A DNA stretch of 64,000 bases from an uncultured Candidatus Saccharibacteria bacterium (GTDB lineage: Bacteria > Patescibacteriota > Minisyncoccia > Phycocordibacterales > EsbW-18). A program made the position numbers and the translations under genes. How positions within the stretch are numbered: the stretch's first letter is position 1; each line of letters begins with the position of its first letter. The stretch lies in contig CAYZIR010000005.1 in NCBI GenBank assembly GCA_964478705.1, forward strand, positions 508 through 64,507, read 5' to 3'. Shown in pieces: positions 4,933 to 63,096 of the stretch. The notes under the pieces were generated by a model that made no database searches, was not told the origin of the DNA, and saw only the letters and a list, made by a program, of their open reading frames with translations.

Positions 4933-4950
4933 ATGTGTGCTTGGGGGCGG

Positions 4951-5110
4951 TTCGGTCACGAATCACTAAGTATTTTGCTCGCTTTGCTCACAAAATCCTA
5001 AGTGTTCTCGACCCCGCCTCGCCCCGCTCTGCGGGGCTCCGGCCTTCGAATCCTTCCCGAAGCTAAAACAAAAGTCGCCGAATGCTGACGCATCCGGCTC
5101 CTTTGTTTTT
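4951..5110 (-). repeat. ~160-bp tRNA-3'-flanking element bounded by 14-bp direct repeats of the tRNA-Phe 3' end
   Basis: GTGCTTGGGGGCGG at 4937..4950 and 5111..5124. Interior has hairpin CAAAACAAAGGAGCCGGATGCGTCAGCATTCGGCGACTTTTGTTTTAG and module GGATTCGAAGGCCGGAGCCCCGCAGAGCGGGGCGAGGCGGGGTCGAGAACACTTAGGATTTTG, homologous to the element 3' of tRNA-Leu(TAA) at 24758..24916. Confidence 0.7.
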
Positions 5111-5111
5111 G

Positions 5112-5185
5112 TGCTTGGGGGCGGATTCGAACCGCCGACCCTCTGCTCTTCAGGCAGATGCTCTAACCAACTGAGCTACCCAAGC
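5112..5185 (-). tRNA. tRNA-Phe (anticodon GAA), CCA not encoded
   Basis: Cloverleaf GCTTGGG/TA/GCTC..GAGC/TCTGC-CTGAAGA-GCAGA/GGCGG-TTCGAAT-CCGCC/CCCAAGC-A read on minus strand. Confidence 0.9.
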
Positions 5186-5186
5186 A

Positions 5187-5270
5187 TAATTCTTCTCTAA
5201 CCAATCCCGACGCTTCGGTCGGGACCCCGACCTCCGCCTTGCGGAGCGTCGGGGCTGAGCTACCCAAGCA
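5187..5270 (-). repeat. Partial tRNA-Phe 5' copy (nt 1-15 plus 16-25) interrupted at D-loop position 15/16 by a 50-nt GC-rich hairpin
   Basis: CTGAGCTACCCAAGCA at 5255..5270 duplicates 5171..5186. Insert TCCCGACGCTTCGGTCGGGACCCCGACCTCCGCCTTGCGGAGCGTCGGGG at 5205..5254. Near-identical insert at tRNA-Thr (60162..60211) and a related one at tRNA-Arg (5844..5903). Confidence 0.75.
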
Positions 5271-5464
5271 AATGAGGATGACACGCAGCGTTTAGGACGA
5301 AGGTTTCGAGGCGAGAGAAAAAGGAAGCTCGCTTACTTTTTCTTGAGACCGAGGAACCGGGAGTCCGAAGCTATGTGGTCCGAACGCCGCTTGGGTATGG
5401 TACTCCATATCCAAGTCTTGCGTATTCGCCATTTTACCACAATTTTCTAGCCTCTCAATGTACG

Positions 5465-5713
5465 CTAAAAACTGAAGAGATTTTTCACATTTGTTTGTGT
5501 TTCCTGGAAACCACCATACACGCCCTGAAGCGTCTCGAGATATGGCTTGAGGAAAAACAAAGCGCCGAACGACACACCGAGAATAACGACCCAATAGACA
5601 ATTTTTATTGCTCTACCCCACAGTGCTCCTCGGTAGAGTTTTTTTAAAAGCTCATTATTTTCTTTTCCAAGCGCAAGCGATTCTCTGAGCATTCGCTGTT
5701 CTTCGGGATTCAT
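5465..5713 (-). CDS. Hypothetical small membrane protein
   Basis: ORF with one hydrophobic helix (IVYWVVILGVSFGALFFL); no recognisable family. Confidence 0.35.
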   Translation of the reverse strand: MNPEEQRMLRESLALGKENNELLKKLYRGALWGRAIKIVYWVVILGVSFGALFFLKPYLETLQGVYGGFQETQTNVKNLFSF

Positions 5714-5828
5714 GACTGAATTATATCATGCATCATTATGATATAGTCGTTTTACGCCCTCATATGAGTACATATGAGATCGGCGTTCGGACAGAATAAA
5801 AGCAAGCTTTCATTCTGCATCCTCACTT

Positions 5829-5916
5829 GCCCTCATAGTTCAAAGCCGACGCTACGAAGTAGGTCTACTCCCCGATTCACGCCTCGCGTGGCGTCGGGGC
5901 TGATAAGAAGGTGTAC
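5829..5916 (+). repeat. Partial tRNA-Arg 5' copy (nt 1-15) followed by a 60-nt GC-rich hairpin insert
   Basis: GCCCTCATAGTTCAA (5829..5843) is identical to tRNA-Arg nt 1-15; insert AGCCGACGCTACGAAG...GGCGTCGGGGCTGA (5844..5903) shares the ends AGCCGACGCT / GCGTCGGGGCTGA with the Phe and Thr inserts. Confidence 0.7.
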
Positions 5917-5918
5917 GC

Positions 5919-5990
5919 GCCCTCATAGTTCAACGGATAGAACAACTCCGTCCTAAGGAGTGGATCTAGGTTCAATTCCTGGTGAGGGCA
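5919..5990 (+). tRNA. tRNA-Arg (anticodon CCT)
   Basis: GCCCTCA acceptor pairs with TGAGGGC; anticodon stem ACTCC/GGAGT; loop GTCCTAA. Confidence 0.85.
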
Positions 5991-6188
5991 CAAAACAAAG
6001 GAGTCGGATGCGTCAGCATTCGGCGAGTTTTGTTTTGTAGCTTCACAACAGGGATTGAAAGTGAGTGCGGGGCACCCCGCCAGTAGGCGGGGTCGCACGA
6101 ACAGGGCCGAGCGGAACGAGGAGCGACGGCGACGAGTGAGCGCTTGGCCAATTCCTGGTGAGGGCACAAAACAAAGGAGTCGGATGCG
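5991..6188 (+). repeat. tRNA-Arg 3'-flanking element bounded by 39-bp direct repeats that include the tRNA 3' end
   Basis: AATTCCTGGTGAGGGCACAAAACAAAGGAGTCGGATGCG at 5974..6012 and 6150..6188. Interior carries hairpin CAAAACAAAGGAGTCGGATGCGTCAGCATTCGGCGAGTTTTGTTTTG and motif GGAGCGACGGCGACGAG. Confidence 0.7.
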
Positions 6189-6821: not shown

Positions 6822-6860
6822 TCAACGGGGTCGCGTTGTACCACTAAACTAATCCCGCGT
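6822..6860 (-). repeat. tRNA-like 5' half fragment upstream of tRNA-Gly
   Basis: GCGGGATTAGTTTAGTGGTACAACGCGACCCC (read on minus strand) looks like an acceptor/D-arm but has no matching 3' half. Confidence 0.4.
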
Positions 6861-6861
6861 A

Positions 6862-7284
6862 TTAGCGTTGCTTCACATAATCCCCACTCCCCCACGAAAA
6901 CCAACCTTTCATACGCGACCAGATACTTTGTGATTCATTGGAGAGCGGTGTATCTTTCTCGTCCGAAAGTATCACAATCACCTCTTCATCTACTTTTGCA
7001 ACACCGAACCGATCTCGAATCTCTGCCTCAACGCCAACATCGGTCGATAAAGATTCTATTTTCGAATCAAGAAACGCCTCACGGTTTTCAAGGTCGCTAT
7101 ACGCCTCTTTGGTTTTCTCAAGTAACACAGCAGTCTTATGGGACTTCTGGTACATGTCCCATGTGTTCCATGCGCTCATAATAATGAACCCCGCAAAGAC
7201 AATGAACGTGAGCGGAGAATACATAAATCGTCGCGCTCGCTGTTTATCGTGAAAATCAATGTTTTTAGCTTTACGAAGAAGCAT
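6862..7284 (-). CDS. Septum formation initiator family protein (FtsB/DivIC-like)
   Basis: Single N-terminal TM, coiled coil, conserved RDRFGVAKVDEEVIV motif. Confidence 0.55.
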   Translation of the reverse strand: MLLRKAKNIDFHDKQRARRFMYSPLTFIVFAGFIIMSAWNTWDMYQKSHKTAVLLEKTKEAYSDLENREAFLDSKIESLSTDVGVEAEIRDRFGVAKVDEEVIVILSDEKDTPLSNESQSIWSRMKGWFSWGSGDYVKQR

Positions 7285-16287: not shown

Positions 16288-16358
16288 CGGGCCCACGAGG
16301 AATCGAACCTCGACCTTCTCTTTTGGAGAGAGAAATTCTACCTTTAAACTATAGGCCC
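16288..16358 (-). tRNA. tRNA-Trp (anticodon CCA)
   Basis: GGGCCTA acceptor, loop CTCCAAA, TTCGATT T-loop; 3' end ..GGGCCCGCA (CCA not encoded). Confidence 0.85.
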
Positions 16359-16801
16359 TTGGTTTCGTATCCGAAACGCCAGTGTTTTCCTACACGTGCG
16401 GTTTTACGACGATGACAATTTGCACACCTCACATCACATTTTCCTATCTCATTCATTATCTCAGCTACAGAATAACTGTGCCGGAACATTTGAGAGATAG
16501 GGAGTCGTTTATCGGAGCGATGGTCGAAGTCTAGCACAACAATATCGTCTTCTCCACAGTCAATACAAGGATTCGCTTGAAGGTGTCGGAATATCACTTC
16601 CCTCAATACCTGCCTTTGTTTCTTGTTCCATTTCTTCGCTTTTTTAATATATTTTGTACGGTTTGCTTTATAATGGTCTTTTCTGTAGAGAGCATGACAG
16701 CTTTTACAAACATAGTGTCGTAAACCTTTATCTGCATCCTTCCAATTGAAATCATTCTCTTTCTTTCCTTCTTTGCATGTAGCACAAATCTTTGATTTCA
16801 T
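16349..16801 (-). CDS. Free-standing HNH endonuclease with N-terminal Cys4 zinc finger; its last four codons overlap the first 10 nt of tRNA-Trp
   Basis: CIDCGEDDIVVLDFDHRSDK...CDVRCANCHRRKT (HNH/His-Me finger); N-terminal CATCKEG..CKSCH. Final codons AAG GGC CTA TAG coincide with tRNA-Trp nt 1-10 on the same strand. Confidence 0.7.
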   Translation of the reverse strand: MKSKICATCKEGKKENDFNWKDADKGLRHYVCKSCHALYRKDHYKANRTKYIKKAKKWNKKQRQVLREVIFRHLQANPCIDCGEDDIVVLDFDHRSDKRLPISQMFRHSYSVAEIMNEIGKCDVRCANCHRRKTARVGKHWRFGYETKGL

Positions 16802-17562: not shown

Positions 17563-17568
17563 AAAATA

Positions 17569-17607
17569 ACAAACAACCTACAACAAACAACCTACAACAA
17601 ACAACCC
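17569..17607 (-). repeat. GGTTGT-type tandem repeat directly abutting the tRNA-Tyr 5' end
   Basis: tRNA sense strand: GGGTTGTTTGTTGTAGGTTGTTTGTTGTAGGTTGTTTGTTATTTTGC then tRNA. Same motif upstream of tRNA-Leu(TAG) at 25285..25323. Confidence 0.7.
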
Positions 17608-17619
17608 GAAAAAGCAAAA

Positions 17620-21182: not shown

Positions 21183-21381
21183 TCATGTAGCGCGAAACAT
21201 GTAACATGTAGCGTGCAACACAGAATACGGAGTACAGAGTACGGAACATAGAGTACGGAGTACAGAGTACGGAACATAGAGTACGGAGTACAGAGTACGG
21301 AACATAGAGTACGGAACACGGAGTACGGAGTATGGAAACTCCAAACTCATGTACGCGTTACATGTTACATGTTTCGCGCTA
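21183..21381. repeat. 25-bp perfect inverted repeat enclosing a 28-bp tandem repeat array
   Basis: CATGTAGCGCGAAACATGTAACATGTA (21183..21209) and its reverse complement TACATGTTACATGTTTCGCGCTACA (21357..21381). Between them AGAGTACGGAGTACAGAGTACGGAACAT occurs three times plus partials. Confidence 0.8.
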
Positions 21382-21401
21382 CACGCTCTGTGCTCTGTCT
21401 T

Positions 21402-24755: not shown

Positions 24756-24757
24756 CT

Positions 24758-24916
24758 CGGAGGAAATTTAAACATTTTGATCGACGGTGGGAATCGAAGG
24801 CCGGAGGCGCGCCATTGGTCTGAGCGCCGACCTGCCTGCCGGCAGGCAGGGGCGGGGTCGAGAGTACTTAGAATTTTAGGCGCATAGCGACTAAAATACT
24901 TGAGTTGCTCGTGACC
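24758..24916 (+). repeat. 159-bp tRNA-3'-flanking element bounded by 19-bp direct repeats of the tRNA-Leu(TAA) 3' end
   Basis: GATTCCCACCCTGGGCACT at 24739..24757 and 24917..24935. Interior ..GGAATCGAAGGCCGGAGGCGCG..GGGGCGGGGTCGAGAGTACTTAGAATTTTAGGCGCATAGCGACTAAAATACTTGAG..CGTGACC is homologous to the tRNA-Phe element. Confidence 0.75.
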
Positions 24917-24960
24917 GATTCCCACCCTGGGCACTTACAGAATATTTTCAAAATAGGGCA

Positions 24961-25011: not shown

Positions 25012-25153
25012 GGCGTGCGGACCACATGGCGTAGATAGCTCGGGCTCCCATTTTCTCGTGCTCAAGCAAAAATAAGAACAAGCTCTTATTTTTGCTCTCC
25101 ACTCGAAAACACGCCCTCGCTTGAGAGACACACCGCGTGTCATCCTTACTAAA

Positions 25154-25226: not shown

Positions 25227-25284
25227 CAGCGTTTAGAAAAAGCTTGGCAACTTGTAATGATATGCGATTCGCCTTTTGTCTGTC

Positions 25285-25323
25285 TTTGTTGTAGGTTGTC
25301 TGTTGTAGGTTGTTGGTTATTTC
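25285..25323 (+). repeat. GGTTGT-type tandem repeat abutting the tRNA-Leu(TAG) 5' end
   Basis: TTTGTTGTAGGTTGTCTGTTGTAGGTTGTTGGTTATTTC followed immediately by the tRNA. Confidence 0.7.
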
Positions 25324-25405: not shown

Positions 25406-25570
25406 CAAAACAGAGAGCCGAGTGCGTCAGCATTCGGCAATTTTGTTTTGCGCGATTGAGAGAGGGCTCGAAGGGCGGAACCCCGCAGAGCGAGGTGAGC
25501 CGGGTCGAGAAATTTTTACGAGCGACGGCGAGTAAAAAAATGTTCTTGGCCGAATTCTCTCGGCCAAAGC
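25406..25570 (+). repeat. tRNA-Leu(TAG) 3'-flanking element with degenerate direct repeat
   Basis: Hairpin CAAAACAGAGAGCCGAGTGCGTCAGCATTCGGCAATTTTGTTTTG, module GGGCTCGAAGGGCGGAACCCCGCAGAGCGAGGTGAGCCGGGTCGAGAAA, motif ACGAGCGACGGCGAG. Degenerate repeat TCTCTCGGCCAAAGC (25556..25570) versus tRNA 3' TCTCTCGCCCACAAAAC. Followed by a perfect hairpin 25569..25597. Confidence 0.65.
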
Positions 25571-43229: not shown

Positions 43230-43797
43230 GTTGAGGTCGGCTTCGGTGAGCTTAGAAAGAAAGCTCTACGCCTTCCTTGGCATCACAGGTCGCCCCCCGG
43301 CCAGATTGTCTGCCGAGGGTCTACGCCTGCCACCGCGCCAACGGAAAAACACGGCGCCTGTTCTTTCAAAAAGGAGTCACACATTGAAGAAACGTTAGCA
43401 GTACGTTAGCCACGGAATCGTTCCGTGCTAAGGTTCCGTTCGCCTTAATCCCCTTTTAGGGAGAGAAAAGGAACGGAAACTAAACGTCGGACCAACGATA
43501 CACCTAAAATGGGTGACGGAGCTAACGATGCCAGGTGTGACTCGGCGCCGGAGATGAAAAGGGTGGCGCTGTATAAATAAATAACCCTGACTGTGACGGT
43601 AGTAGTGTTGTGTCGAATGCCGACAGAGGTTAAGACCCATCGGCAAACAGCCACGAGTGTGGCAAGACCAACAACATGAAACCGCAAAATCCTAGATCGT
43701 GCCTTACCGGTACGGCGACGGGTCGCAATATCTCCCCCCCCCACTAAATCTTACCGAAAGGAAGTGCCCCCGGCTCAACGAGTCCGGGGGTTTTCAC
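43230..43797 (+). ncRNA. Candidate ~570-nt structured non-coding RNA of unknown class
   Basis: Consensus promoter upstream, strong terminator GCCCCCGGCTCAACGAGTCCGGGGGTTTT at 43766..43794, no ORF with an SD. Internal hairpins CACGGAATCGTTCCGTG and GGTTCCGTTC...GGAACGGAAAC. Lacks tmRNA T-loop and SRP motifs. Confidence 0.4.
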
Positions 43798-43801
43798 ATA
43801 T

Positions 43802-44896
43802 CTAAATTCTAAACTCAATCACATCCCCATCTTTAACGATATACTCCTTCCCTTCTGTTCGAACGAGACCTTTCGCACGTGCTTCAGCGTATGAACCAGA
43901 ATCAATCAAGTCTTTCCAAAACACCACTTCTGCACGGATGAATTTATCTTTGAAGTCCGTGTGAATCGCCGTGCCAGCGATTGGTGCAGTCGAACCACGA
44001 GCAATCGTCCATGCGCGGGTTTCGTCTTCCCCTGTTGTCAGGAATGTAATCAAGTCGAGGAGCGCGTAGCCCGAAACAATCAAATCCTCAATACCACCGC
44101 GAACTGAGAGACTCTTTCGCATTTCTCCACGCTCGCTATCATCAACCGCATTCAACTCCGATTCGTTGCTCGCATCAACAATAACGTACGACGCTTTTTC
44201 CTGCTCAAAGAACGCAAGAAGATTCTGCCAACGTGGATCGTTACCTTCATCCAGGTTCGTCCCACCAGATTGCACGTTCAAGACGTAGAGCATCTTCTTC
44301 ATCGTGAGAAGCGTGAGCTTTTTCACTTCTTTCTCTTCATCCTCGGTCAATGCAACGGTTCGTGCGAACTTCTCCGCCAACAATGCTTCTTTTACCTTTG
44401 CGAGACCATTTCGTTCATGGAGTGCTTCCTTGAGCCCCGCACGTACCTCCTTTTCAACGGAGGAAAGACGCTTTTCAACAACCGCAAGATCCGCGAGAAT
44501 CAGCTCCAAGTTAATCACCTTGATGTCTTCGAGCGGTTCAATCTTTCCTGCAACGTGGATAATGTCGCCGTGCTCGAAGATGCGCACCACGTGCGCAATC
44601 GCATCAACCTCTTTGATGTGCGAAAGGAATTTGTTGCCGAGTCCCTGCCCTTCCGACGCACCCTTCACCAACCCCGCGATATCAACGAATTGAATTGCTG
44701 CAGGGATTGTTTTCTTCGACTTTGAAAAGTCAGTGAGTGCTTTCAAACGTGCGTCAGGTACTTCGACAATACCGACTGACGGGTCAATCGTACAAAACGG
44801 ATAGTTTGCAGCATCAACCGATTGTTTCGTAAGCGCATTAAAAAGGGTCGATTTGCCGACATTCGGTAATCCAACAATTCCGATTGATAAATTCAT
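43802..44896 (-). CDS. ychF: Ribosome-binding ATPase YchF/Ola1
   Basis: GIVGLPNVGKSTLFNALT P-loop, TGS C-terminal domain. Start at ATG 44896 (MNLSIGIVG). Confidence 0.9.
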   Translation of the reverse strand: MNLSIGIVGLPNVGKSTLFNALTKQSVDAANYPFCTIDPSVGIVEVPDARLKALTDFSKSKKTIPAAIQFVDIAGLVKGASEGQGLGNKFLSHIKEVDAIAHVVRIFEHGDIIHVAGKIEPLEDIKVINLELILADLAVVEKRLSSVEKEVRAGLKEALHERNGLAKVKEALLAEKFARTVALTEDEEKEVKKLTLLTMKKMLYVLNVQSGGTNLDEGNDPRWQNLLAFFEQEKASYVIVDASNESELNAVDDSERGEMRKSLSVRGGIEDLIVSGYALLDLITFLTTGEDETRAWTIARGSTAPIAGTAIHTDFKDKFIRAEVVFWKDLIDSGSYAEARAKGLVRTEGKEYIVKDGDVIEFRI

Positions 44897-44899
44897 ATT

Positions 44900-45012
44900 A
44901 AATGCGATATACATTACCCTCTGAAACCACTACCTGCCCCGCGAGATGCGATGCTATCTCTGCGGGGCCGACGTTCGGTAATCCAACAATTCCGATTGAT
45001 AAGTTCATATTA
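44900..45012 (-). repeat. 45-bp duplication of the ychF start region separated by a 68-bp GC-rich near-palindromic insert
   Basis: CCGACATTCGGTAATCCAACAATTCCGATTGATAAATTCATATTA (44855..44899) versus CCGACGTTCGG...GATAAGTTCATATTA (44968..45012), 2 mismatches. Insert contains CCCCGCGAGATGCGATGCTATCTCTGCGGGG. Confidence 0.75.
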
Positions 45013-45237
45013 TTGTCCGAGCAGTTGCTTAAGTTCGTCTGCGTGCTTCGCAAAGACCTGCTGTGCTGCGGTCATTCTATCCATACCACTTTTTGTCTTT
45101 ACTTCCGCCTCTTGTGCTATCTTCATGAAGAAATCAGGGTTCTTCTCAAAGGCCGAAATAATCATCTGTTTCTGGTCGTCAGGAACGCCCGCGAGCTGGC
45201 GCTCCATGAGTTTTTTCAATAAAAGTTCTTTAAACAT
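45010..45237 (-). CDS. Hypothetical small protein (75 aa)
   Basis: Helical, charged; no recognisable family. Confidence 0.4.
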   Translation of the reverse strand: MFKELLLKKLMERQLAGVPDDQKQMIISAFEKNPDFFMKIAQEAEVKTKSGMDRMTAAQQVFAKHADELKQLLGQ

Positions 45238-45307
45238 GTGGGCATCCTACCACAAAAAGAAAACCGCGTCCTGTAGTACAGAACGCGGTCTCTTTCGTCG
45301 AGTCAGC

Positions 45308-55518: not shown

Positions 55519-55556
55519 CTAACGAACCTCCCCCGCTCAGCGGGGGTTGGGTGCGC
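55519..55556 (-). terminator. Tandem hairpin terminators after pheT
   Basis: GGTGCGCTAAGCGCACC and CCCCCGCTGAGCGGGGG on minus strand. Confidence 0.6.
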
Positions 55557-57950
55557 TTAGCGCACCTCCCATCCCTTTCCGCGAATCTCATCCTCAATCT
55601 TACCCATGATCTCACTCACCTCAACATCAGAGAGCGTTTTTTCGTTCGATTGAAAGACGATGTGATATGCGTATGATGTTCTTCCCTCTTTGGTGAATGT
55701 ATCGAAAAGATCCAACCGAGCAAGAAGTTTGCCAGCATGACTTTTGATGACGCCTTCGAGATCTTCTGAGCTGTTGGTTGTTGGTTGTTGGTTGTTGGTT
55801 CCCCCGACCCATACTGCAATGTCACGAAGGATAAAAGGATAGACCGAGATCGGCGCGAATGTCATGTTTGGCAAACGTGGCAAGTCGCCGTACGAGTCAG
55901 GAGTTGGAAGCGATTTGATCGTTTTTGAAAGGGATGCGGTGGCAATGTTTGCTCGCTTCATCCATACAAGCGGAGAAGTGGAGGTCGTCGTCACTGCTGC
56001 AATTGCAGCATCAAGATCTCTGCCCTTTTCTGTCGCAATCCCAATTTGTTGTTCCTCACCAGTCTTACTAAATATGGTGCCAATTTCGAAAATTCGTACA
56101 GCATCGACGCCAATGAGCGGCCTATTTTTTTGGTTGAGCTCAAGGGCAGCCTTTAAACCTTCTACGAGTGACGAACGAAGATATTTTTTATCATTAGCAA
56201 TCGGGTTCGCTACTTCAATTTCACCATCGTCTTGAAATGAGTATGTCGACACCTCGGAAAAGCCGGCATCAACAAGCGCTCGGCGGACGAGCGCTTTGTA
56301 GTATTCGTTCTTGTTGACCGCAGGTGTGAATCCGTCGAAAGGCAACGGTGTTGATGGAATCGATTCAAGACCTTTGAGCCGGCCGATTTCTTCGATCAAA
56401 TCTTCTTTGATACGGATGTCGATGCGCGGCGCGGGAACTGTCACCACAAAGCGTGGTTCGTTGTTCGTGATGATGCGACGATAGCCGACGATATTTTCAA
56501 ATGCCTTGGAACCAGAAAGATCTTCAATGACGACTTCGCCCTTATCCCATTTTCCTGATGCATGAAGGATTTTCCCTTCACCAAGATAGATGCCGTTGTG
56601 ATCGATACCTGCCGAGAGCTTTGTCCCTGCCATGAATTCATGCGAGACACTTGTCTGACGAACTTGGTCGATACCAAGACTTTCAATATGTTCTGTCGAT
56701 CCATCACCCTTTCGATCTGAGAATACGATGTCTCCCGCACGAAGATCATTTGCCTCAACCGGCGCACTAAAAACAAACTGATCAACAGCCATACGCGGAA
56801 TTGCGATTCCAGCTTGTGCGTAGAGATATGCGACCAAAGATGAGCAGTCGAAAGCTCTTGGCGCATCACTCAAAACACTTGCACCGTATTTGTATGGAGC
56901 GCCAACCAAGGTTGGAGCAAGTTTCAAAATCTGTTCAAGCGGCTGTATGTAGGTGTATTCAAAACCAAGACGCTTGAAGTAGTCTTCGACCTCACTTTGA
57001 GAACACGTCGTGCCGAGCGCTGTGTTAATTTCCGAAAGTGAGACGCCAACAACGTAGAGATTCTTTTTGTTTGGATACGACTCAACAATGTCTTGTGCGA
57101 CTTTTCCATTCGCGAGCTCTTCAATGAGTGCCGAAAGACGCTCCATAGCAATCGCAGTAAGTTCAGGACTGATTCCCTGCTCGAATCGGATTGACGCATC
57201 GGTGCGAAGTCCGAGCTTCTTTGATGTCTTGCGAATGTTTACGGGATCAAAATTGCAGACCGAAAGAACGATGCGTGTCGTGTTCGCATCAATACCCGAT
57301 GTCGAACCGCCTTTTACGCCAGCAATATCGAGTGCTTTCTCGCTGTCGCTGATAACAAGAACGTCTGGGTTCAGTACGAATTCCTTACCATCAAGGGTGG
57401 TGATTGTTTCATCTTCTTTTGCTGAACGTATTGAAAGAGCTGTTGGTTGTGAGTTGTTGGTTGTGAGTTTGTCATAGTCGAATGCGTGAACCGGCTGACC
57501 TGTTTCGAGCATCGTGAGGTTCGTTGCATCAACAACGTTGTTGATCGAACGCTGTCCGTGTGCAGCAAGTTTTATTTTGAGCCATTCGGGAGATTCGCCG
57601 ATTGTGACACCTTCGACATAGCGCTTCATTGCGCGTGGAACGAGCTTTGAGTTTTCGATGGTAAGCGAAAGATGATCGCTTGTTGAAATACCTGAGTCGG
57701 TTTTTGGATGAGCCTCAGGAATGTTTGCTGTGACATTGAGAAGCGCGGCGACTTCACGAGCGATACCGTGGTATGAAAAACCATCGTGGGAACGGTTTGG
57801 AAGCACTTTGATATCGAGAATCGTATCGCTGCCGTGTGACTCGGTTCCGTCGATTTCAAATGCATGCATCGTAATCGTGCGCGACAAATCAGCAACCGAT
57901 GGAAGCGGTTTGTCGAAATATTCCTGAAGCCATGCGTAGGAGAATTTCAT
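55557..57950 (-). CDS. pheT: Phenylalanyl-tRNA synthetase beta subunit carrying an inserted NlpC/P60 domain and two in-frame microsatellite insertions
   Basis: B1 and B3/4 (..PEWLKIKLAAHGQRSINNVVDATN..), B5 (..VEDYFKRLGF..), B6/7 (..VTVPAPRIDIRIKEDLIEEIGRLKG..), FDX-ACB C-terminus. aa ~340-490 (nt ~56481..56933) carry APYKYGAS..FDCSSLVAYLY..AGDIVFS..HNGIYLGEGKILHAS. Repeat-coded peptides TTNNSQPT (nt 57441..57464) and GGTNNQQPTTN (nt 55770..55802). Confidence 0.85.
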   Translation of the reverse strand: MKFSYAWLQEYFDKPLPSVADLSRTITMHAFEIDGTESHGSDTILDIKVLPNRSHDGFSYHGIAREVAALLNVTANIPEAHPKTDSGISTSDHLSLTIENSKLVPRAMKRYVEGVTIGESPEWLKIKLAAHGQRSINNVVDATNLTMLETGQPVHAFDYDKLTTNNSQPTALSIRSAKEDETITTLDGKEFVLNPDVLVISDSEKALDIAGVKGGSTSGIDANTTRIVLSVCNFDPVNIRKTSKKLGLRTDASIRFEQGISPELTAIAMERLSALIEELANGKVAQDIVESYPNKKNLYVVGVSLSEINTALGTTCSQSEVEDYFKRLGFEYTYIQPLEQILKLAPTLVGAPYKYGASVLSDAPRAFDCSSLVAYLYAQAGIAIPRMAVDQFVFSAPVEANDLRAGDIVFSDRKGDGSTEHIESLGIDQVRQTSVSHEFMAGTKLSAGIDHNGIYLGEGKILHASGKWDKGEVVIEDLSGSKAFENIVGYRRIITNNEPRFVVTVPAPRIDIRIKEDLIEEIGRLKGLESIPSTPLPFDGFTPAVNKNEYYKALVRRALVDAGFSEVSTYSFQDDGEIEVANPIANDKKYLRSSLVEGLKAALELNQKNRPLIGVDAVRIFEIGTIFSKTGEEQQIGIATEKGRDLDAAIAAVTTTSTSPLVWMKRANIATASLSKTIKSLPTPDSYGDLPRLPNMTFAPISVYPFILRDIAVWVGGTNNQQPTTNSSEDLEGVIKSHAGKLLARLDLFDTFTKEGRTSYAYHIVFQSNEKTLSDVEVSEIMGKIEDEIRGKGWEVR

Positions 57951-60066: not shown

Positions 60067-60142
60067 TGGAGCCGCTTCCCAGACTCGAACTGGGGACCTT
60101 CTCTTTACAAAAGAGTTGCTCTACCAACTGAGCTAAAGCGGC
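60067..60142 (-). tRNA. tRNA-Thr (anticodon TGT), CCA encoded
   Basis: GCCGCTT acceptor, loop TTTGTAA, TTCGAGT, 3' ..AAGCGGCTCCA. Confidence 0.88.
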
Positions 60143-60150
60143 AATATATT

Positions 60151-60227
60151 TATTCTACCAAAGCCGACGCTTCGGTCGGCTCCCCGACCCTCGCCCTGCG
60201 AGGCGTCGGGGCTGAGCTAAAGCGGCA
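60151..60227 (-). repeat. Partial tRNA-Thr 5' copy interrupted at D-loop 15/16 by a 50-nt GC-rich hairpin (sibling of the tRNA-Phe insert)
   Basis: CTGAGCTAAAGCGGCA at 60212..60227 duplicates 60128..60143. Insert AGCCGACGCTTCGGTCGGCTCCCCGACCCTCGCCCTGCGAGGCGTCGGGG (60162..60211) is ~85% identical to 5205..5254. Confidence 0.75.
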
Positions 60228-60254
60228 GTAAAAGCGAGTATACACTAATCTCTC

Positions 60255-63025: not shown

Positions 63026-63096
63026 ATGTTTTTCATTATCATAGCAGGAATCCCGCCCCGCCCTCATATGAGGGCGGGGCGGGATAGAAACTGTAT

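Follow-up and report, generated by a model that had tools for sequence, protein, structure and literature searches.

How does a gene come to be preceded by a second copy of its own start, and what becomes of the gene when it does? The question is raised by the essential GTPase gene ychF in a 64,000-nt stretch of DNA (hereafter the window) from an uncultured Candidatus Saccharibacteria bacterium (GenBank assembly GCA_964478705.1, contig CAYZIR010000005.1, positions 508 to 64,507 of the forward strand), where the first codons of the gene occur twice, on either side of a short segment that opens with a GC-rich hairpin. Comparison with related genomes identifies this arrangement as an insertion that is derived, recent and real. 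The bacterium belongs to the Patescibacteria / Paceibacteria, near Candidatus Campbellbacteria, and its lineage has gained 112 bp at this site: 66 nt are new, and the other 46 bp copy the target.

The start of ychF is duplicated around a hairpin-bearing insert

A repeat search returned a 46-nt direct repeat whose two copies are 96% identical (2 mismatches) and spaced 112 nt from start to start (Table 1), with 66 nt of unique sequence between them (44901-44966). Each copy consists of TAAT, including the TAA stop codon of a gene of 75 amino acids (aa), followed by 42 nt (14 codons) of ychF. The upstream boundary of the duplication coincides exactly with this TAA, and the 3′ boundary falls inside the P-loop motif of YchF (GLPNVG/KS, the slash marking the boundary). 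The first-pass annotation of the window had recognized the duplicated start and its two mismatches but gave the repeat as 45 nt, composed of 36 nt of ychF and 9 nt of leader; both the length and the composition are corrected here.

Read on the minus strand, the 75-aa gene ends in ...CTC GGA CAA and runs directly into the upstream copy (direct repeat 1, DR1), TAAT ATG AAC TTA TCA ATC GGA ATT GTT GGA TTA CCG AAC GTC GGC. This is followed by CCCGCAGAGATAGCATCGCATCTCGCGGGG and CAGGTAGTGGTTTCAGAGGGTAATGTATATCGCATT, then by the downstream copy (DR2), TAAT ATG AAT TTA ... CCG AAT GTC GGC, after which ychF continues with AAA TCG ACC. The junctions of the insert are GTCGGC^CCCG and CGCATT^TAAT. Both mismatches are AAC in DR1 versus AAT in DR2, at ychF codons 2 and 12; they are third-position C/T differences and synonymous. 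The longest uninterrupted identical run between the copies is 29 nt. Immediate neighbors of the repeat are the 75-aa gene, an 83-aa open reading frame (ORF) and ychF itself, on whose called product the Pfam domains MMR_HSR1 and YchF-GTPase_C were found.

The insert had been described as a 68-bp GC-rich palindrome. A GC-rich palindrome is indeed present, but it accounts only for the first ~31-33 nt of the 66-nt insert and is followed by an AT-richer tail of 35 nt that is non-palindromic and unstructured (~42% GC). The hairpin, GCCCCGC-A-GAGAT...ATCTC-GCGGGGC, consists of a 7-bp GC stem, a 1-nt bulge and a 5-bp inner stem. It folded at -23.4 kcal/mol (z = -5.4), a stability reached by none of 200 shuffled sequences, and its 30-mer is unique in the window.

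Two other ways of producing such a repeat were dismissed. Had a 112-nt unit been duplicated in tandem and then diverged, the 66 nt should resemble ychF nt 43-108; they do not, despite repeats that are 96% identical. A diversity-generating retroelement was considered since the mismatches read A versus G on the plus strand; only 2 of 16 adenines differ, both synonymously, and the target would be the P-loop.

The insertion is real and derived

The Logan assemblies of two separate sequencing runs (SRR16481182 and SRR16481183) are base-for-base the same as the NCBI contig through both copies and the insert. An exact empty site, reading ...GGACAA TAAT ATG AAT... and 112 nt shorter, is present in four relatives' loci (L015, from CAZWLQ01; L098, from JAGOTE01; L099; and L100), which represent two lineages, L098 being the more distant. 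In all four, the 75-aa ORF is conserved directly upstream of ychF with the junction TAA-T-ATG. YchF of the relatives has 364 aa and the N-terminus MNLS, which bears out the earlier assignment of the downstream copy as the functional start. No second ychF start was found within 3 kb in any of 27 other Patescibacteria ychF loci (0/27). The first-pass annotation had predicted an empty site from its reading of the locus as an insertion with target duplication, and had held that an ancient start duplication shared by relatives would speak against it; the empty site is there, and neither the 27 loci nor the four empty-site relatives share the duplicated start.

The base in DR2 agrees with that of the relatives at codon 2 in 4/4 and at codon 12 in 3/4 (L015, L099 and L100, not L098). 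This agreement mildly favors the change having occurred in the upstream, non-functional copy. Recent recombination importing ychF was also rejected. Nucleotide identity between the window and L015 is 84.5% (a value of 98% refers to the best segment only), and because this identity is even along the gene there is no sign of recent import.

Consequences for ychF translation and annotation

In the relatives' genomes, the 75-aa gene runs into ychF through a stop-start overlap, TAATATG, with no Shine-Dalgarno sequence before the ATG; this overlap probably drives ychF translation. Because the duplication includes TAATATG, the overlap was regenerated, and the present order is 75-aa gene, TAATATG, 36-aa ORF, TAATATG, ychF. 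The 36-aa ORF opened by the upstream copy had been read correctly in the first-pass annotation, as the ORF list shows. Since the insert contributes 22 in-frame, stop-free codons that terminate at the TAA of DR2, a ribosome arriving from the 75-aa gene could translate the 36-aa ORF as a bridge, end translation at the rebuilt TAA and reinitiate at ychF. The hairpin now lying between the two genes may lower or uncouple ychF expression.

Promoter and terminator functions of the insert were tried as explanations and rejected. A promoter scan found neither a sigma-70-like promoter nor a Shine-Dalgarno sequence in the 35-nt tail. A terminator scan listed none at 44936-44968; past the hairpin come CAGGTAG on the minus strand and CGACGTT on the plus strand, so that the T-run of an intrinsic terminator is missing on either strand.

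The insertion also misled gene callers. They moved the ychF start to an ATG inside the insert (43802-44914, 370 aa, MYIAFNMNLS...), a product recorded in both Logan run assemblies, and the 36-aa chimeric ORF was called as a gene in Logan contigs. The 370-aa start is wrong and the 36-aa gene call is spurious, and both errors follow from the insertion.

Three tRNA genes of the window show a parallel architecture

Rfam returned only ten tRNAs above gathering scores in the window, and no match below E = 0.9 in 44700-45300. Three of the ten tRNA genes (tRNA-Thr, tRNA-Phe and tRNA-Arg) carry a 5′ duplication around a hairpin, compared with 0/24 tRNAs of the other fetched genomes. The duplicated segments are 15-19 nt long and begin at -1 or +1 of the mature tRNA, and the non-duplicated part measures 65-75 nt. 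In each case the upstream copy follows the native leader CATCCTCAYTT and is followed directly by a GC-rich double hairpin of 50-56 nt, then by 8-10 nt of tRNA continuation (TTGGTAGA, TTGGTTAGAG and CTGATAAGAA), and then by 7-10 nt of AT- or purine-rich filler that reaches to the intact tRNA. The double hairpins of the three genes are homologous, and 4 compensatory pairs occur among these 3 sequences. All are oriented alike on the plus strand, and are therefore inverted relative to tRNA-Arg. They all sit in the D-loop motif CAA^C(T/G)GA, and all tRNAs with this motif carry the insert (3/3); another 23 free copies of the 7-mer in the window are insert-free, nearly all of them expected to lie in coding sequence, although their positions were not checked singly. 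Empty sites were found for tRNA-Phe in four lineages, namely L089 (...GTCATCCTCATT/T GCTTGGGTAGCTCAGTTGG..., with an Hsp20 that is 97% identical) and three further ones, and for tRNA-Arg in L093 and L095/L097. Searches of viral and metagenome contig collections with the double hairpin gave only chance matches in high-GC coding DNA.

The likeness to ychF is one of layout. At both kinds of target the 5′ end of a gene is duplicated from its start, the intact gene lies downstream and relatives have empty sites; the GC hairpin follows the upstream copy without a gap; and the part outside the duplication is of similar length (66 nt at ychF versus 65-75 nt at the tRNAs). The ychF hairpin also has the shape of hairpin 1 of the tRNA inserts, with a 7-bp GC stem, a 1-nt 5′ bulge and an inner stem of 5-6 bp. 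In contrast, the tRNA inserts are homologous to each other, keep one fixed chromosomal orientation and occupy a CAA^CKGA site, none of which applies to the ychF insert. The earlier claim that the two share an architecture thus holds for the layout at tRNA-Thr, tRNA-Phe and tRNA-Arg, but does not extend to homology: a covariance model of the double hairpin (R2) matches the three tRNA copies at E = 4e-16 to 4e-13 and gives nothing at 44901-44968 up to E = 10.

A second covariance model (R1), built from 7 sequences of 4 genomes, represents a family found at tRNA 3′ ends. It recovers 4/4 members of the window at 66-114 bits, with no match at ychF (E ≤ 10), and homology of the ychF insert to either tRNA-linked family was rejected on the strength of both models. 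Two resemblances to the 3′ family are leads and not evidence of homology. The junction CGAACGTCGG-CCCCGCAGAG resembles CGAAGGCCGGAGCCCCGCAGAG (p ~0.006 per comparison, uncorrected for 7 targets and 2 strands), and the small hairpin of the tRNA-Phe 3′ element has the identical stem, GCCCCGC/GCGGGGC, with a loop beginning AGAG.

Two further observations concern tRNA genes. Several tRNA genes of different kinds have the motif (G)TCATCCTCAYTT right before their +1 position, both in the window (~5268-5280, 5812-5828 and 25141-25153) and in other genera (L089, L093 and L095); the 5′ inserts shift it away from the functional tRNA copy. Just upstream of tRNA-Gly, at 6836-6880, is a fragment resembling a tRNA 5′ half (GCGGGATTAGTTTAGTGGTACAACGCGACCCCG), which does not correspond to the tRNA of that gene.

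Table 1. Features of the ychF locus and of the tRNA-linked elements. Positions refer to the window unless another locus is named.
Feature	Position	Strand	Description and source
ychF	43802-44896	-	functional gene, 364 aa; ATG at 44896 in DR2; ORF list
DR2	44855-44900	-	downstream repeat copy with functional ychF start and regenerated TAATATG; repeat search
Insert tail	44901-44935	-	35 nt, CAGGTAGTGGTTTCAGAGGGTAATGTATATCGCATT; sequence
GC-rich hairpin	44936-44968	-	first 2 nt are the last 2 nt of DR1; folding
DR1	44967-45012	-	non-functional ychF-start copy at the ancestral position, two T>C differences; repeat search, empty-site alignment
36-aa chimeric ORF	44898-45008	-	14 YchF codons and 22 insert codons, stop is the TAA of DR2; ORF list
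75-aa gene	45010-45237	-	TAA stop is the first 3 nt of DR1; ORF list; conserved upstream of ychF in relatives
tRNA-Thr	60067-60142	-	duplicated 5′ segment TGCCGCTTTAGCTCAG, start-to-start 84 nt; insert region 60143-60230
tRNA-Phe	5111-5185	-	duplicated 5′ segment TGCTTGGGTAGCTCAG, start-to-start 84 nt; insert region 5186-5268
tRNA-Arg	5919-5991	+	duplicated 5′ segment GCCCTCATAGTTCAA, start-to-start 90 nt; insert region 5829-5918
tRNA 3′ module	4940-5110		after tRNA-Phe
tRNA 3′ module	5992-6188		after tRNA-Arg
tRNA 3′ module	24757-24947		after tRNA-Leu-taa
tRNA 3′ module	25407-25565		after tRNA-Leu-tag
tRNA 3′ module	L024, 6154-6345		
tRNA 3′ module	L089, 1140-1336		
tRNA 3′ module	L095, ~5690-5876		

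Origin of the duplicated start

We favor, with a probability of roughly 0.5, an insertion with long target duplication, in which a small enzyme-less hairpin segment entered between widely staggered breaks. The two strands would have been broken 46 bp apart at the ychF start, one break falling right after GTCGGC in the P-loop codons and the other just before the TAA stop and ATG start. A small enzyme-less, possibly mobile, hairpin-bearing DNA (or captured filler DNA) would then have been joined between the ends, and filling in of the single-stranded flanks would have produced the 46-bp duplication. Because ychF is conserved in every relative examined, only a duplication reaching TAATATG would leave a working gene. 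Survival may thus have acted as a filter, such that only events rebuilding the gene start persist and the shortest sufficient duplications dominate, which would explain why the duplications end exactly at TAATATG and at gene starts.

Several observations weigh against this interpretation. The insert is a singleton: blastn-short against ~100 fetched loci found only its own locus, the insert-encoded peptide had itself as sole match among 5.8 billion protein clusters, and the covariance models of both tRNA-linked families left it undetected. There are no terminal inverted repeats (the insert ends are CCCGCAG... and ...CGCATT), and Pfam found no transposase, integrase or nuclease among the 20 neighboring ORFs, which are housekeeping genes only. 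The comparison with the tRNA genes is imperfect as well. The ychF event has no target continuation after the hairpin, whereas the tRNA events have 8-10 nt of it, and its 46-bp duplication is 2.5-3 times as long as theirs. A simple target-duplication model leaves the 8-10-nt continuation at the tRNAs unexplained. Finally, both repeat mismatches are synonymous third-position changes, which has a chance of ~0.1 if the upstream copy drifted freely and fits an imported, allelic copy slightly better.

The tRNA continuation suggests either a duplication of ~25 nt with filler, followed by insertion of the hairpin into the dispensable copy, or replicative template switching. An RNA-templated origin of the tRNA duplications, from 5′ tRNA fragments bearing A-rich tails, was considered as well but did not extend to ychF. 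More broadly, and tentatively, the lineage may harbor an undescribed route that inserts small protein-less hairpin DNAs: a preferred break would fall in a conserved gene (the tRNA D-loop, the T-loop or the ychF P-loop codons) and a second break at variable distance, and only events that rebuild the gene end would survive. The first-pass annotation went further and took ychF as showing that the insertion mechanism is not tRNA-specific. A common mechanism can be inferred from architecture only and we do not regard it as established; no second copy of the ychF insert was found in the window (30-mer with ≤3 mismatches; blastn-short).

The alternative that survives best, possible though doubtful, is a one-off accident of repair or replication without any mobile element, in which nicks or a staggered double-strand break were filled and 66 nt of filler with a chance hairpin were captured. 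It would account for an insert that is a singleton, belongs to no family and has no inverted terminal repeats. The filler could have been copied from elsewhere in the genome, because GC hairpins without T-runs sit at many gene ends (e.g. 43767-43790, 55530-55566 and 63050-63085), and the tRNA events, too, hold 7-10 nt of unexplained filler. However, four events of the same layout within 64 kb, against none in the 24 tRNAs of other genomes, point to a recurrent process in this lineage. In 4/4 events the hairpin stands exactly at the end of the upstream copy, and in 4/4 the non-duplicated part is 65-75 nt.

We consider it unlikely that the repeats are the scar of a site-specific integration, in which an element whose attachment site took in the first 46 bp of the ychF locus brought a replacement start and then lost almost all of its interior, so that attL, 66 nt and attR remained. 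The locus does resemble the attachment duplications left by integrases at tRNA genes and gene ends, where direct repeats of tens of bp lie over a gene end and an intact gene is kept. It is well established that integrase attachment sites typically show 46-bp identity segments restoring the end of a gene (discussed in PMC2853133), and the two synonymous C/T differences are what a copy contributed by a related donor allele would show. Attachment repeats, however, are borne by a large integrase-encoding element, and the ychF repeats enclose just 66 nt, with no element body. The 20 ORFs include no integrase by Pfam, an element or second copy was found within 3 kb of ychF in 0/31 relatives' loci, and the scar would need an internal deletion that spared both repeats. 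At the tRNA genes, every duplicated segment matches its own tRNA, whereas the inserts share homology with one another, which argues for a duplicated target rather than a copy carried by the element.

Very improbable, and compatible with the other explanations, is an evolved regulatory leader, with the 36-aa ORF and the hairpin forming a selected, translation-coupled attenuator of ychF. In its favor, the ORF stays open and in frame up to the rebuilt TAATATG, and the hairpin is stable. Against it, chance could well produce an open 22-codon frame with an in-frame or overlapping stop (~0.1-0.25 by our own estimate). The arrangement is absent from all relatives examined and is therefore not a conserved device, its peptide has no homologues and Rfam gives no match. 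The last alternative, an assembly artefact or two-strain chimera, which the first-pass annotation had itself raised, is negligible: Logan contig L004 does end inside the upstream copy, but two run assemblies match the NCBI contig over the whole structure, and the longest exact repeat is 29 nt.

Relation to known systems

The insertion with long target duplication that we favor for ychF has a named precedent in "insertion with long target duplication", a class described for restriction-modification genes (Nobusato et al. 2000; Furuta, Abe & Kobayashi 2010, PMC2853133). Insertions of this class carry no transposase or integrase of their own, duplicate more than 30 bp of unique target overlapping a gene end, and are recognized by empty-site comparison. 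Two Haemophilus influenzae cases have 46-bp duplications (PMC2853133). By the duplication rule of Furuta et al. 2010 (>30 bp, single copy in the insert-free genome), ychF falls within the class, with 46 bp that are single in L015, L098, L099 and L100. Their rule on gene content, a restriction and a modification gene, excludes it, as the 66-nt insert holds no gene beyond the chimeric 36-aa ORF. The known members are kilobase-scale restriction-modification sets, in contrast to a gene-less 66-nt insert that begins with a hairpin, and the cause suggested for them is a double-strand break made by the restriction-modification enzymes (PMC2853133).

Long target duplications are also made by some insertion sequences, with 8-514 bp for IS1549/IS1634 and 19-26 bp for IS1630 versus the usual 2-14 bp (PMC2266710, PMC2853133). 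As of the 2008 review of the IS4 family, there was no mechanistic model for such long, variable duplications (PMC2266710). IS1634, IS1549 and IS1630 resemble the ychF event in having long target duplications that vary from copy to copy, and the ychF pattern is what a non-autonomous derivative of one of them would leave. Unlike the ychF insert, they are 1.5-2 kb long and have a DDE transposase and terminal inverted repeats, neither of which was seen in the 20 ORFs or in the insert. The insert also does not qualify as a DDE-derived miniature inverted-repeat transposable element: terminal inverted repeats are missing, and the duplications measure 46 bp at ychF and 15-19 bp at the tRNAs. The insert occurs once in the window and all fetched loci.

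Short, protein-less, GC-rich hairpins that spread in compact genomes, in or beside genes, include REP/BIME/REPIN sequences, Rickettsia palindromic elements, yeast mitochondrial GC clusters and fungal mitochondrial double-hairpin elements. These small mobile palindromes are multi-copy, and their target duplication is absent or only a few bp long. The ychF insert shares their short, protein-less GC-rich hairpin, but is a singleton with a 46-bp duplication. To our knowledge, none of them has been reported to regenerate a gene start by a duplication of tens of bp.

The ychF event belongs to a cluster of unusual insertions that regenerate gene ends in a genome of the candidate phyla radiation. If the ychF and tRNA events share a mechanism, a bacterium with a tiny genome tolerates insertions in its most conserved genes by way of target copying, and the window offers a compact, sequence-defined set of events, each with empty site, filled site and exact junctions, for the study of long target duplications. 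If a general insertion of hairpin DNAs exists, ychF would be its first protein-coding example, and the process would be general rather than tRNA-specific. As a one-off accident, the event would be no more than a tidy illustration of how duplication can rescue a gene start.

Other repeats and palindromes of the window

The 3′ family modeled by R1 is a conserved module of ~150-190 nt that follows tRNA genes in distantly related Paceibacteria and has no Rfam match (Table 1). It starts with a terminator-like hairpin, after which the T-arm and 3′ end of the tRNA itself recur in inverted orientation, followed by a small hairpin with a CAGAG loop that shows compensatory changes. The remainder consists of GGGGTCGAGA, an AT hairpin with the loop GAGCAAAGCGAG, the motif TCGTGAC and a directly oriented copy of the tRNA spanning T-loop to 3′ end. 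The 3′ duplications end at, or just past, the tRNA 3′ end. A search of viral sequences with the core of the family gave 50 chance matches, none of them real.

Small palindromes occur inside these elements. The 20-nt perfect palindrome CCTGCCTGCCGGCAGGCAGG is present in the tRNA-Phe 3′ element of L089 (1156-1175), without target duplication, and is missing from the corresponding place in the window (~4948); it is also found inside the tRNA-Leu(taa) 3′ element of the window (24831-24850). This pattern suggests that the clade gains and loses tiny GC palindromes. A perfect GC-rich palindrome of 36 nt (ATCCCGCCCCGCCCTCATATGAGGGCGGGGCGGGAT, 63050-63085) lies between an L31-domain gene and the next gene, where it overlaps the upstream ATG (63067) of a 338-aa ORF as listed.

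Among the ORFs of the window, one of 150 aa (16349-16801, minus strand) ends in ...CDVRCANCHRRKT..., which includes a CxxCH-like motif resembling that of HNH nucleases, and shares 10 nt with the 5′ end of tRNA-Trp. No HNH match was returned for it by Pfam, only weak, sub-threshold hits to Prim-Pol and EcoEI_R_C.

Two further repeats were observed. Between the genes for a trypsin-like peptidase and an aminotransferase, ~9-12 tandem units of 14 nt (consensus near AGAGTACGGAACAT / AGTACAGAGTACGG) occupy 21186-21383; the arms of a 28-nt inverted repeat, which are 96% complementary, flank this array on both sides (21186-21213 and 21356-21383). Directly upstream of tRNA-Tyr and tRNA-Leu(tag), a GTTGT-rich stretch of 55 nt (TTGTTGTAGGTTGT...) occurs at 17564-17618 and 25268-25322; the two copies are 82% identical, and the stretch may be a shared promoter or leader element.

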